From contig OZ234493.1 of assembly GCA_965153455.1 (NCBI GenBank), positions 16,730,213 to 16,794,212 on the forward strand: DNA of 64,000 nucleotides, read 5' to 3'. The notes under the pieces were generated by a model. The model did no database searches, was not told where the DNA came from, and saw only the letters and a program-made list of their open reading frames with translations. This stretch comes from Sphagnum compactum. Lineage: Eukaryota. Below are positions 10,570-13,500 of the stretch, one piece after another (the first letter of the stretch is position 1; every line of letters begins with the position of its first letter). The position numbers and the translations under genes are program-made.

Positions 10570-13500
10570 TCATGTATGATCAAGGATCCAGCATGTTTCA
10601 AGTTCAACCAAGCCATTGTTGCCGTTGGGAAGCTCCAAAGAACAATTTGTGTTGCAAACTACCAAATTTGCACTAGAAGATTGATTGCTTGATTTGGACA
10701 TAAATGAATAATTTTTCTTGGAACCTAGAGATTCTCGAAATGCAACCTCCACTTCTTTTTCTCCCAGTAACATGGCCAAGACATGCATCATCGATGGACG
10801 TCTTGTTGGTATTGTGTGCACACATAAGAGTGCCACATTGATCACGTGTTGTATTTGACTTTCCGAATTGTTGTTGATGTTTAGATTTTGGTCAATTAGA
10901 TTTTGCAACATCTTGTTTTCATGCAAAAACCATGCCTGCAAAATGTTTTAACATTAGTTTCACAACAATGGAAAGTGAAAACACATGTTAACTTTTCGTA
11001 GTGATGAATCCAACCAAATTATATCTTTTGATTGATGCAACTTTAAACAATTTCAACCAAATCATAAAACATTAAAGATACATGTTCAGTATTTTACAAA
11101 TAAATATTGTGCTTGTGTGGTGCAAAAACATTTCAATAATGTGTTAGCGATATAAAAATTAAAATTAAGAATTGTCTATAGCATAGGGTCTAAGAAGTGT
11201 CAAGTTGTAAGACAAAGGCTACCATTAGTTATTTGACCCATGATACCACAATGTCATAACAAATGTGCCCAAACGCAAATTTTTTTGATTTGGCACTTAC
11301 CCATTCAAGAAGGTAAATTTTGTCTATTGACAATGTGAAATCCATGCTTTTTCTACCACTTATAATCTCCAACAAAAGGATACCAAAGCTATAAACATCA
11401 ACCTTGTCACTGAGTTGACCAAGGGTTGCATATTCTGGAGCCAAATATCCCCTGTATGGACATGATAAATCCAAGTAAATGGCTAACTTTCAAAGTTGTT
11501 GATATTCAAATTGGGACAACACCATATATGCAATAATTTCGCAATGTCAAAACTTTTATTGTTTTGCAAAAAGTTTGATATTGGGATTTAAAAATAAAAA
11601 AACTTACCTTGTTCCAGCAATATGAAATGTGGTCATGTGACTTTCATCATCTGGGAATAATCTTGCTAATCCAAAGTCTGCAATCTTGGCATTAAATTGT
11701 TTGTCTAAAAGAATGTTGGGTGCTTTGATGTCTCGATGTATAATTCGTTGATGTGAATCTTCATGAAGATAACTAAGGCCACGAGCTATTCCCACACATA
11801 TGTTAAAACGTCTTGGCCAATCCAATTGTAAACAGTTGTCTCCTACATGATGATTAACAACATAATTTTCATATTAACATAACCTTCAATTAAACTATAA
11901 GACCAAAACATGAAGGTGAACAAGTTGATTTGACATAAATAACTAGAGAATATTAATTTGAATGATTTTCATCATTGTACATGCAAAAACTTCATCATGG
12001 GATTGAAAAGTGACCATACCCCATAAAACTTCAGCAAGATTTTGGTTTTCCACAAATTCGTAAACAAGAAGGCGTTGTACACCGTGTAAACAACACCCTT
12101 TCAAGGTCACTAAATTCTTGTGTTTGACACTTGTGAGGAGAACAATTTCATTCAAAAATTCAGTTACCCCTTGTTCCGATTTTTTGAGCAACTTAATTGC
12201 CAACTCTCCTCCATTTGACAAAACTCCCTACAAAATTAATACACAATTAGAAAGTAAAGGTTATGTTGTGAAATAATTAAGTACATGTGTGCACAAATAT
12301 TTTCTTTAATTGAAAATGGATTTTAAAATGCATGGACATCCATAGATGTTGGTTCATTGAAACAAGGATTTCAAATTATTGAATCACTGATAATTTAAAT
12401 AATGATCAATGAAAAAGAATTTTCAATTGACATTGTTGTATGGTTTGTGAGATAATCATGGGATAGTTGAGTGTGCACGTAACATAAATTATGTGATTTA
12501 ATTACATTGCTTTATAAGATTGTTAAATGGATTCACCTTGTAGACGATGCCAAAGCCACCTTCTCCAAGCTTGTTGCTTTGATGAAAATCTCTAGTTGCT
12601 GTCTTCAAAATATTATATGAATATAGTGTGGGTTGCACTTCTTTGTTTGCAAACTCTGCGAAAATTGACTTGTAAACTTAATACACATAAAAAATTGTCA
12701 ACAAAATTATTTCAAATGATACAAATCATTTTGTATATTCAATGTGTGAAAATCATTAATAAGAATGCTTGTGTCAAACATGTTTTAGCCAAAGGTGAAA
12801 TTCAAAAACATTATGTTCAAAATGTTCAATGTACAAAATGCATGAATCAAAACTTTGAAAAAGAACTTGACTTTAAACATACCTTGTTGGATTTCACGTA
12901 AAATTATCATATTTGCATGATATTTCCAATATGTGATGGTAAATATTATACCTCCCACAATCATGAAAAATGGAAGTGTTGTTGATAGTGTCCATATTAA
13001 CACCCTATTGTCATTTGCTGGAGGGAGGGGGTCGAAAAAAGGATCTGTTTCAAAACCAACGATACCTTATGATCATTTGTACTTGAACATTCCCATAGAA
13101 TTTTTTGATGGTTATTAACATATGTTTGTGATGTAACATATGTGTAGATTTGGAATAGAATAATTTCAATAAGGATCTTGGTATTTCCAACCTGGAGTTA
13201 CAATTGTAGATAAGCTGTATCGACAATTGCATGCTTGATGTAAAGATTTTAAAGAACCATTCACATAAAATATTTCAAATTGTTTAAAATTATCATCATA
13301 AAAAGTATTTAATTGAGATATGTTGCAACATGGATTCCCTCCAAGTCTGCAAGCAAAATAATTGCCATTCCAATTTCAATAATCTTCAAACTATAACAAA
13401 AAAATCACATTTGCGAGGAAAATCCTCTTCACATGATGAAAATTGATGAAAAATTCAATGCAATGCAATCTATTCAATTAATTTCATTATAAAAAATTCA

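Follow-up and report, generated by a model that had tools for sequence, protein, structure and literature searches.

The window, i.e. the whole 64,000-nt stretch of Sphagnum compactum DNA analysed here, holds a tandem array of 17-exon Sphagnum LRR receptor-kinase genes on the minus strand. Two of the copies are intact: copy 1 (positions 10570-19511, minus strand, 871 aa), whose exon model was guided by the protein P0001 and has GT..AG at every splice site and an open frame, and copy 3 (48792-57330, minus strand, 869 aa), with canonical splice sites throughout and an open frame as well. Copy 2 (33063-41915, minus strand) is a pseudogene: exon 2 contains a TAA (41564-41566), exon 15 has lost 7 nt (within 34099-34326), and two splice sites are broken, the exon-11 donor reading AT instead of GT (35667-35668) and the exon-17 acceptor AA instead of AG (33429-33430). 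The fourth copy (62285-64000, minus strand) is truncated, its 3' flank being fused to the exon-13 region: in the self-BLAST comparison 7621-8994 corresponds to 62285-63623 and 12319-12684 to 63635-64000, the part matching copy 1 at 8994-12319 (kinase exons 14-17) is missing, and a tblastn match lies at 63853-63993. The loop of the fourth copy, i.e. the counterpart of the variable segment described below, is expected past the end of the window.

The copy 1 protein is arranged in the order of signal peptide, N-cap, LRRs, C-cap, membrane helix and kinase. In P0001 the repeats are matched by PF00560 (LRR_1) at 56.6 bits (cut-off 20.6) and the kinase, at residues 537-805, by PF00069 at 157.5 bits; PF08263 (LRRNT_2) reaches 20.5 bits, marginally under its cut-off of 20.7, and is a precomputed domain for some family members. 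The AlphaFold2 model places a membrane helix at residues 435-475, and only about 70 residues separate GGNPCC from that helix. Among named proteins from outside Sphagnum, the kinase domain is closest to LRR-VIII-2/DLSV-clade kinases annotated as "probable LRR receptor-like kinase At1g56140" (52-56% identity to LRR-VIII-2-like sequences, 44-50% to CRK and SD1 kinases, one match being named RLK-Pelle-DLSV), and by best-match identity it is of the DLSV/LRR-VIII-2 type. LRR-VIII-2 proteins carry a malectin domain between the LRRs and the membrane, whereas the moss family has a short CC-loop-NCRY-stalk region instead, and neither PF11721 nor PF12819 (malectin) is present among the seven Pfam matches of P0001 (E up to 0.01). 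One report (PMC10739070) attributes the expansion of LRR-VIII.2 to bryophyte genomes.

Two hypervariable blocks between the last repeat and the membrane

Exon 11 of copy 1 (13192-13346, minus strand, 155 nt) encodes, in this order, LGGNPCC, a variable loop, a conserved core and a variable IVTP. The loop comprises codons 8-28 of the exon (13262-13324, minus strand, 21 codons) and the core occupies 13205-13261 (minus strand). A second hypervariable block begins at the end of exon 11 (13192-13204) and continues in exon 12 (13016-13044, minus strand, ..PFFDPLPPA); it represents the extracellular stalk ahead of NDNRVLIW and the membrane helix, exon 12 as a whole (12883-13044, minus strand) encoding stalk, membrane helix and inner juxtamembrane region. 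The corresponding loops are found at 51478-51540 in copy 3 (minus strand, 21 codons) and at 35739-35801 in copy 2 (minus strand, NMYQLVTFYDYEFDEFEIIYL), where the segment is in frame and still open despite the lesions of that gene. The coordinates and peptides that the initial annotation had given for the three loops are exact, each following directly upon LGGNPCC on the minus strand. Its counts for copies 1 and 3 were also reproduced on recomputation, with 19 of 63 nucleotides and 14 of 21 residues differing in the loop and no silent difference in the seven conserved codons (NG86: Nd 18.5 over 52.2 sites, Sd 0.5 over 10.8 sites). The 20 codons that follow the loop (NGSLKS..STI), described there as nucleotide-identical, are so in copies 1 and 3 but differ by 4 nt between copies 1 and 2. 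The term "near-identical receptor kinases" was too strong, since outside the variable blocks 66.5 replacement and 46.5 silent changes separate copies 1 and 3 over 824 codons. That copy 2 is a pseudogene had been overlooked.

Against a background divergence between copies of 7.4-8.2% (about 7,000 aligned nt, introns included), the loop ranks first among all 63-nt windows for copies 2 and 3 (21/63), second for copies 1 and 3 (19/63) and fourth for copies 1 and 2 (13/63). The binomial P values are 9e-9, 4e-7 and 7e-4, respectively, and become 1e-6, 4.5e-5 and 0.07 when multiplied by the approximately 113 non-overlapping windows. The top-ranked window for copies 1 and 3 is the second block (12997-13053), which was absent from the initial annotation: 26 of 57 nt differ and the indels are in frame. 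Exon 12 of copy 3 (51105-51260, minus strand) is 156 nt long versus 162 in copy 1, with +6/-12 nt in-frame indels and a strongly diverged stalk. Because the nucleotide alignment of the stalk contains out-of-frame gaps, the NG86 values for copies 1 and 3 (dS 0.50, dN 0.73) are unreliable and were replaced by a protein-guided alignment, still uncertain, in which the stalk block has an omega of 3.76 (LRT 27, p 2e-7). A small inversion was considered as the cause of the loop divergence and rejected, since on visual inspection the copies form an ungapped alignment with identical positions dispersed along it.

The hypervariability of the loop is thus confirmed in the window, and it extends to every family member seen. 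Across 17 aligned family proteins the entropy per column averages 0.29 bits, and the two highest 15-column windows are the stalk (2.08 bits) and the loop (1.92 bits), followed by the next window at 1.0; LRR windows never exceed 0.57 bits. The LRR part is conserved by this measure and also between copies 1 and 3 (omega 0.45 for the ectodomain before the loop), and therefore the variability lies outside the site usual for LRR receptors, as had been claimed: the signal of replacement excess is found in the C-cap loop and the stalk rather than on solvent-exposed LRR positions. Loop length ranges from 10 to 22 residues across the family, four loop positions are conserved with Q, I/L and Y alternating, and many loops are acidic and aromatic (DDYEFD, DHYEYD). 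The description of the loop as Cys-bounded holds in part. The entropy peak directly follows an invariant CC and the invariant Cys of NCRY comes after it, but the other Cys of CNC is C, Y, K or Q and this fourth Cys is not conserved. The core, which separates the two blocks and does not differ between copies 1 and 3, contains an N-x-S sequon in addition to the invariant NCRY cysteine. Residues N411, C412, R413, Y414 and S417 are the same in all 16 aligned proteins, and the NGS...NCRY core is probably glycosylated.

In the AlphaFold2 model of the ectodomain (16-row alignment) the solenoid is confident to about residue 360. Residues 362-444 have pLDDT values below 50 (30-45 around the loop) with only a weak hairpin (381-384/394-397), so that a placement of the loop was not obtained; on this model the loop may be disordered. 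ESM Atlas look-alikes of residues 395-480 had scores of at most 0.88 and were generic LRR ends only.

RNA evidence and reading frame of the loop

Poly-A RNA raw reads cover the exons and only trace amounts fall in introns. The exon 10-11 joint (13346->13546) is present in two raw reads of X22 and one contig of X17, and a second joint (12655->12883) in three raw reads and two RNA contigs, both in agreement with the copy 1 model, although the RNA support of the window copy is thin (exon-11 depth 0.6-1.75, the 11-12 joint not being among the joints listed). Two of 21 metagenome loci are intron-less, L009 and L011, and both keep the loop within one long frame, which in L009 is a 701-aa ORF through exons 1-15. 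The loop is also translated in database gene models of seven named Sphagnum species. The segment is coding, since spliced RNA and these cDNA-like contigs contain it in frame. The lengths of exon 11 (122, 149, 152 or 155 nt) are all congruent to 2 modulo 3, and those of exon 12 (156, 159, 162 or 165 nt) are all multiples of 3; introns 10 and 11 together have just six indels, each of 1 nt. We regard it as scarcely credible that the segment lies outside the protein, being intronic or always skipped: the exon 10-11 joint exists in RNA, the intron-less contigs retain the loop, every indel in the segment is in frame, and loss of exon 11 (155 nt) would shift the frame, which is consistent with the broken donor of copy 2. 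Two RNA reads that splice exon 10 straight to a copy-2-like exon 12, and a S. fallax isoform (P0025) whose donor directly follows the loop and which has lost the conserved core, are the observations in line with skipping.

Rates of change in the loop and its flanks

Rates and selection were analysed in 17 distinct exon-11 DNA sequences. For 14 shared sequences the ML tree of the loop has a length of 2.54, compared with 0.56 (introns 10 and 11), 0.48 (exon 10) and 0.44 (exon-11 core), i.e. the loop changes at 4.5 times the intron rate. Over 136 loop pairs the mean pN is 0.352 and the mean pS 0.210, with an intron p of 0.079; pN is larger than pS in 124 of the 136 pairs and larger than the intron value in all 105 pairs compared. 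In the comparison with flanking introns that the initial annotation had suggested, replacements in the loop thus accumulate faster than its silent changes and faster than changes in the introns. A parsimony reconstruction on the tree counts 137-138 replacement versus 13 silent changes, where replacements would be expected to make up 0.80-0.81 of the total (P 7e-5 to 6e-4). One-ratio ML codon models of the loop yield omega values of 2.3-3.4 in all five frequency settings (LRT p 0.016-0.0002), 2.37 (p 0.032) for the 13 copies without visible lesions and 1.4-2.9 (p 0.37-0.003) for a post hoc subset minus the four conserved codons, these being model-sensitive values from our own implementation, fitted to 21 saturated codons from a mixture of orthologues, paralogues and pseudogenes with metagenome contigs included, in which recombination breaks the single-tree assumption. 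With the added sequences the ratio therefore still exceeds 1, as the proposal of diversifying selection had implied.

Silent divergence in the loop is also raised, about 2.3-fold over the flanks (0.21 vs 0.09), and therefore part of the excess is not specific to replacements; old lineages, copy exchange or local mutation bias could be behind that part. The neighbouring parts are themselves weakly constrained, with omega values of 0.87 in exon 10, 1.2 in the exon-11 core and 3.3 in the membrane-helix segment (33 codons), and the contrast between the loop and its neighbours is mainly one of rate. These figures bear on the alternative that the loop has no adaptive role, being a weakly constrained disordered linker in which local mutation or mis-repair is raised (e.g. 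by tandem exchange) and in which the frame is kept only for the downstream kinase. The silent divergence of the loop, omega values near 1 in adjoining exons as a mark of weak constraint in the family, the pseudogenes in the array, the low confidence of the structure model, and the single model of the post hoc subset with omega 1.4 and p 0.37 agree with such a linker. A mutation hot spot, however, would need to skip the 57-nt core, which changes more slowly than the introns (0.44 vs 0.56) while the loop runs at about 4.5 times their rate, and neither the predominance of pN over pS in most loop pairs, nor an omega above 1 for the full loop in every frequency setting, nor the four conserved loop positions would be expected of a free linker. 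We consider this explanation unlikely.

The loops and their flanks have partly separate histories. Between L010 and L012 the introns show 2 differences in 200 sites, yet the loops differ at 23 positions; between L018 and L019 the introns show 0 differences in 347 sites, yet exon 11 has two replacements. Identical loops recur in genome assemblies and metagenome contigs (e.g. L011 = P0007), which points to germline coding. The initial annotation had named a conversion tract from a distant paralogue as an alternative source of the diversity, in which case the loop divergence would be inherited from old distant paralogues rather than newly selected. The only useful distant sequences among the best 150 matches of the P0001 ectodomain were P0073 and P0079, nearly all others being giant multi-LRR proteins ranked by repeat sum. 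These two (the latter together with L021) have 46% identity and CC-to-NCRY inserts of 14 and 27 residues, versus 32 here, which are unrelated to the family loops. Elsewhere in the window there are no donor cassettes for any loop or stalk sequence, the best chance matches being 12-15 nt and one imperfect 23-nt match, and a donor under purifying selection should give an omega below 1 instead of the 2.3-3.4 observed. The part of the conversion argument that stands is the raised silent divergence (pS 0.21), by which old loop lineages or exchange between copies contribute, and with it the discordance of L010 and L012; as the general explanation, inheritance from distant paralogues appears very improbable.

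A putative recognition surface and its analogues

We lean, with modest confidence and on the pattern of substitutions, to the reading that loop and stalk are under diversifying selection as a putative membrane-proximal recognition surface, while the flanks are homogenised by recombination. In this Sphagnum-specific tandem family the loop, encoded by exon 11, precedes the stalk block that reaches into exon 12, both being short coding segments with hypervariable sequence; the loop is translated and extracellular, between the last repeat (..LLGGNPCC) and the NGS...NCRY core. Both segments would determine what each paralogue or allele recognises, be it a ligand, a protein acting as partner or a protein of an attacking microbe, with the LRR solenoid serving as conserved scaffold and recombination or gene conversion within the array keeping the flanking DNA similar. 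Such homogenisation would account for near-identical introns beside unlike loops, and the two segments may form a binding surface with a role in immunity or in other recognition.

The same evidence of diversifying selection would be produced if loop and stalk were not a ligand site but an arms-race target or bait that microbial proteases or effectors cut or grip (with shedding at the stalk), variation allowing the receptor to escape or report the attack. The stronger signal in the proline-rich, membrane-adjacent stalk (omega 3.76, entropy 2.08 bits) and the predicted flexibility of the region (pLDDT below 50) suit a bait, whereas the conserved loop positions, with Q, I/L and Y alternating, suggest a folded element and not a free linker. 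The other data fit bait and binding role alike, and we judge the bait quite unlikely.

Searches for specificity determinants in plant LRR receptors centre on the repeat surface and on island domains. In this family the variation is restricted to some 40 residues that link the last repeat to the membrane, which directs attention to a different site of recognition, and as the candidate site is small, two intact neighbouring genes allow direct swap tests. The family also offers a natural case of selection keeping short segments diverse in tandem genes that homogenise each other. Sphagnum is of great ecological weight and has few characterised receptors, and the array adds a candidate immune or recognition locus in this genus.

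Xa21- and Cf-type clusters are examples of tandem plant LRR receptor genes under positive selection, and with such clusters the moss family shares the tandem array, birth and death with pseudogenes, and an extracellular replacement excess. Two further systems may be compared by analogy: the S-locus receptor kinase (SRK), of the same broad kinase clade, has its specificity in short hypervariable stretches of the ectodomain, and platelet GPIb-alpha has an acidic, tyrosine-rich (sulfotyrosine) binding stretch directly behind the LRR C-cap. In recent LRR-RLK paralogues, according to PMC5380761 (citing Fischer et al. 2016), the LRR domain is most affected, at four repeat positions; there the signal lies in the LRRs, whereas the moss family has conserved LRRs and carries the signal in the C-cap loop and stalk. 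Our literature search, with limited terms, found no papers on this Sphagnum family or on C-cap/stalk hypervariability in plant LRR kinases.

The nearest analogue of the moss loop would be the hypervariable C-cap insert of the lamprey VLRs. As described in PMC3900441, the LRRCT insert of VLRA and VLRB varies in sequence and length between the cap cysteines and forms a protruding antigen-recognition loop. In both cases the most variable parts belong to the C-cap (in and just after it in the moss), but the likeness is one of analogy only, with no homology between the two families. Lamprey diversity is somatic and arises by cassette copying, whereas that of the moss is in the germline, among paralogues, alleles and species; the concave LRR face varies too in VLRs and is conserved in the moss; and the VLR insert protrudes, whereas a protrusion of the moss loop (pLDDT below 50) is not modelled with confidence. 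We offer tentatively, as an idea that we hold to be somewhat doubtful, that the specificity element in these peat-moss LRR kinases could be the C-cap and not the repeat surface, in the form of a germline hypervariable insert plus stalk whose old lineages are kept under balancing or diversifying selection as recombination homogenises the remaining parts of the gene, a plant counterpart of the lamprey insert. The kinase clade of such a counterpart would be one with self-incompatibility and immune receptors among its relatives.

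Receptor-kinase array and gene models

Self-comparison of the window reveals three tandem copies, plus a truncated fourth, of a unit of about 16-22 kb; nucleotide identity over exons, introns, and spacers is 87-93%. The best database match of the loop-bearing exon is a Sphagnum compactum protein of 872 aa (P0001), which served as guide for a 17-exon gene model on the minus strand. Copy 1 (10570-19511, minus strand) and copy 3 (48792-57330, minus strand) are intact in this model, encoding 871 and 869 aa, respectively, with GT..AG at every splice site. Copy 2 (33063-41915, minus strand) is a pseudogene, disabled by four lesions on that strand: TAA in exon 2 (41564-41566), loss of 7 nt from exon 15, and changes of the exon-11 donor from GT to AT (35667-35668) and of the exon-17 acceptor from AG to AA (33429-33430). 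Its loop frame is still open. In the fourth copy (62285-64000, minus strand) the 3' flank is fused to the exon-13 region, there is no counterpart of copy 1 positions 8994-12319 (kinase exons 14-17), and the loop lies beyond the window end.

The open frame at 1752-2207 (plus strand) contains a fragment of a copper amine oxidase enzyme domain (PF01179, 83.9 bits, profile positions 277-372 of 407), and the repeat unit of this fragment is present again at about 24360-28912. Since the fragment is inside the duplicated unit, a piece of another gene appears to travel with each receptor copy. Damaged family members also occur in moss-associated metagenomes: the contig loci L006-L008 and L012 have TGA in place of CGA within the invariant NCRY, on two different loop types, and L020 has lost the exon-12 acceptor. 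These dead or damaged members point to fast birth and death within the receptor family.

All 15 listed species-named members of the 24-member P0001 cluster are from Sphagnum, and a search with the end of the ectodomain likewise gave Sphagnum proteins in 11 of 11 cases, which marks the window as peat-moss DNA. The Pfam hits of P0001 comprise LRRs, a kinase domain, and, at a borderline score, the plant N-cap; malectin, the domain expected of LRR-VIII-2, is missing from this receptor. The closest named non-Sphagnum matches of the kinase domain are LRR-VIII-2-like ("At1g56140", 55%; other LRR/malectin-bearing entries, 52-56%), followed by CRK and SD1 kinases (44-50%) and one entry named RLK-Pelle-DLSV, which places the kinase in the DLSV group. 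In PMC10739070, expansion of LRR-VIII.2 is attributed to bryophytes, and stress-related subfamilies are described as marked by tandem expansion.

Two hypervariable blocks flanking a conserved core

The initial annotation had described a 21-residue hypervariable loop directly after LGGNPCC, and the loop peptides were found there, in exon 11, in copy 1 (13262-13324), copy 2 (35739-35801), and copy 3 (51478-51540), all on the minus strand. Its counts for copies 1 and 3 were reproduced: the two loops differ at 19 of 63 nt, 14 of the 21 residues are changed, and the 7 kept codons have 0 silent differences. The next 20 codons, reported as identical, are so in copies 1 and 3, but copy 2 departs at 4 nt. 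The loop divergence is real, but the description of the receptors as otherwise near-identical was overstated, because copies 1 and 3 have 66.5 replacement differences over the remaining 824 codons and copy 2 is dead. Background divergence among the copies is 7.4-8.2% (about 7,000 aligned nt, introns included), and among 63-nt windows the loop ranks 1st, 2nd, and 4th most divergent in the three copy pairs (binomial P of 9e-9, 4e-7, and 7e-4, respectively, uncorrected for about 113 windows). The hypervariable loop is thus confirmed.

Divergence of copies 1 and 3 peaks outside the loop, at the start of exon 12 (26 of 57 nt), in a second variable block (stalk) before the membrane helix that the initial annotation had missed. 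The stalk takes in the last four exon-11 codons and differs between these copies by in-frame indels of +6 and -12 nt. The core flanked by the two blocks consists of ten residues followed by (C/Y)NCRY(S/N)LS. An alignment was made of 17 family proteins, 15 belonging to seven named Sphagnum species and two encoded in the window. Its column entropy averages 0.29 bits and, by 15-column windows, is highest in the stalk (2.08 bits) and the loop (1.92 bits); the C-terminal tail (1.0), a window that overlaps the end of the loop (0.96), and the signal peptide (0.83) come next, and every LRR window is at or below 0.57 bits. Hypervariability therefore affects two blocks and is shared by at least seven Sphagnum species. 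For recent plant LRR-RLK paralogues, PMC5380761 states that positive selection weighs most on the LRR domain. The closest functional analogue is the hypervariable LRRCT insert of lamprey VLRA/VLRB, a loop important in antigen recognition according to PMC3900441; location and variability are common to both, whereas the moss loop is without homology to the VLR insert and without its somatic cassette mechanism. Our literature search found nothing on this Sphagnum receptor family or on C-cap/stalk hypervariability in plant LRR kinases, which is weak evidence of absence.

In 16 aligned proteins, two of which are distant Sphagnum paralogues of 46% identity (P0073 and P0079), the loop is preceded by an invariant CC and followed by an invariant N-C-R-Y. 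Within this CC...NCRY frame, P0073 and P0079 have unrelated inserts of 14 and 27 residues (vs 32). Four loop positions are kept (N/Y, Q, I/L, and Y), the second half alternates conserved and variable residues, and many members have N-x-S/T sequons at both loop ends. Judged from these sequence patterns, the loop may be a folded, exposed hairpin-like element. An AlphaFold2 model of the P0001 ectodomain (16-row alignment) is confident for the solenoid to about residue 360; residues 362-444 have pLDDT of 30-45, with a weak hairpin inside the loop and no confident loop placement.

In "CNC" the second cysteine is invariant; the first position varies across the family among C, Y, K, and Q (TGC at 13229-13231 in copy 1, TAC at 35706-35708 in copy 2). 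The C-cap thus has three or four cysteines depending on the member, which could alter disulfide pairing or leave a free thiol. Many loops (database proteins P0005, P0006, P0008, and P0014, locus L002, and copy 2) have tyrosines amid acidic residues (NDYEFD, DHYEYD, YDYEFDE), contexts that presumably resemble those of tyrosine sulfation in plant peptide hormones; Y-class loops, e.g., that of copy 3, are without them.

Transcription and reading frame of the loop

In the poly-A RNA run X22 (24 reads, drawn from about 12% of the run), raw reads sit on exons with slight intron signal. The joint 13346 to 13546 is spanned by two X22 reads and one contig of RNA run X17, and the joint 12655 to 12883 by three X22 reads and one contig each in runs X15 and X17; both are CT..AC on the plus strand, i.e., GT..AG on the gene strand. 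Exon 11 is thinly covered by RNA (depth 0.6-1.75), and the joint of exons 11 and 12 is below the listing threshold. Two X22 reads skip exon 11; in them exon 10 (13546) continues into exon 12, which over its first 19 letters matches copy 2 and not copy 1. Loss of these 155 nt causes a frameshift and is the outcome that the broken copy 2 donor would produce. Two of the 21 metagenome loci are intron-less: L009 has a single 701-aa frame through exons 1-15, loop included, and L011 has a 490-aa frame with the same loop as the S. magellanicum model P0007. The initial annotation had named cDNA evidence of an untranslated segment as a refutation; the RNA joints and the intron-less loci instead carry the loop in frame, and an untranslated segment is poorly supported and extremely improbable. 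In S. fallax, the annotated isoform P0025 (vs P0024; BDL97_07G001900) uses a GT donor inside the codon right after the loop (..K|G..), removing 22 core residues (GSL..TIFP) in frame; the window copies have this GGT too (about 13258-13259), with no sign of its use as a donor there.

Codon rates and separate histories of loop and flank

An exon-11 alignment scan of metagenome contigs gave 21 loci; its required peptide match imposes a mild bias against frame-broken copies. With the window copies included, duplicates collapsed, and the distant paralogue L021 excluded, 17 distinct exon-11 DNA sequences were analyzed, the visibly broken ones being copy 2, L006-L008 and L012 (TGA, giving NC-stop-Y), and L020 (acceptor lost). 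By Nei-Gojobori counting, the loops of copies 1 and 3 have 18.5 replacement differences in 52.2 sites and 0.5 silent differences in 10.8 sites; the remainder of the gene has dS 0.093, dN 0.035, and omega 0.38. Means over 136 pairs are loop pN 0.352, loop pS 0.210, flank pS 0.090, and intron p 0.079; loop pN is larger than loop pS in 124 of the 136 pairs, and against the introns loop pN is larger in 105 of 105 pairs and loop pS in 83 of 105. Tree parsimony assigns 137-138 replacement and 13 silent changes to the loop, for an expected replacement share of 0.797 (intron mutation spectrum) or 0.814 (flat rates), giving omega of about 2.4-2.7 (binomial P 7e-5 to 6e-4).

In a purpose-written one-ratio codon model with fixed relative branch lengths, loop omega with these additional sequences was above 1 in all five codon-frequency settings (2.29, 2.90, 2.71, 2.92, and 3.43; LRT p = 0.016, 0.0014, 0.005, 0.0012, and 0.0002, respectively); the initial annotation had named a ratio not above 1 as a refutation. 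The 13 copies without visible lesions gave omega 2.37 (p = 0.032), and removal of the four conserved codons, a post hoc subset, gave less stable values (omega 1.4-2.9, p 0.37-0.003). The stalk has omega 3.76 (LRT 27, p = 2e-7), with uncertain alignment gaps. The adjoining parts are under weak constraint: omega is 0.87 in exon 10, 1.2 in the exon-11 core, and 3.3 in 33 helix codons (p = 0.028). Nucleotide tree length for 14 shared sequences is 2.54 in the loop, 0.56 in introns 10+11, 0.44 in the exon-11 core, and 0.48 in exon 10. Indels of both blocks all keep the frame (exon 11 of 122/149/152/155 nt; exon 12 of 156/159/162/165 nt); the two introns have only six indels, each of a single base.

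The explanation we favor, by somewhat better than even chances, is that diversifying selection acts on a surface that is translated, extracellular, and close to the membrane. The evidence for selection is of moderate strength, and the LRRs would form a conserved scaffold. A non-adaptive, fast-changing linker, which we consider unlikely, would account for the raised silent divergence in the loop, the weak constraint nearby, the low structure-model confidence, and the model sensitivity of the codon test, but the replacement excess is consistent, the core between the blocks is slow, and loop positions are conserved. Somewhat less probable still is that the variable surface is a target of microbial proteases or effectors, the "bait" of the initial annotation, rather than a binder of ligands or partners; the stronger signal in the proline-rich stalk speaks for it.

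Loop and flank also differ in history. L010 differs from L012 at 2 of 200 intron sites, yet at 23 loop positions, and from copy 2 at 5 of 200, yet at 22 loop positions. The copy 2 stalk is mixed, with a first half like that of copy 3 and a second half like that of copy 1. Conversion of the loops from distant paralogues is poorly supported and improbable, and no donor-like copies of loop or stalk sequences were found elsewhere in the window. Unlike loops beside alike introns, the stalk mosaic, and the twofold raised loop pS fit old loop lineages kept diverse while the rest was homogenized by recombination or conversion. They do not fit a mutation hot spot, which would need to spare the 57-nt core between two blocks. 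Between L018 and L019, 0 of 347 intron sites differ, yet exon 11 has 2 replacements and 0 silent changes. This pair and L016/L017, with identical or near-identical introns and replacements only, in exon 11 or the stalk (Q/R, S/N; P/S), are possibly alleles segregating within one moss population.
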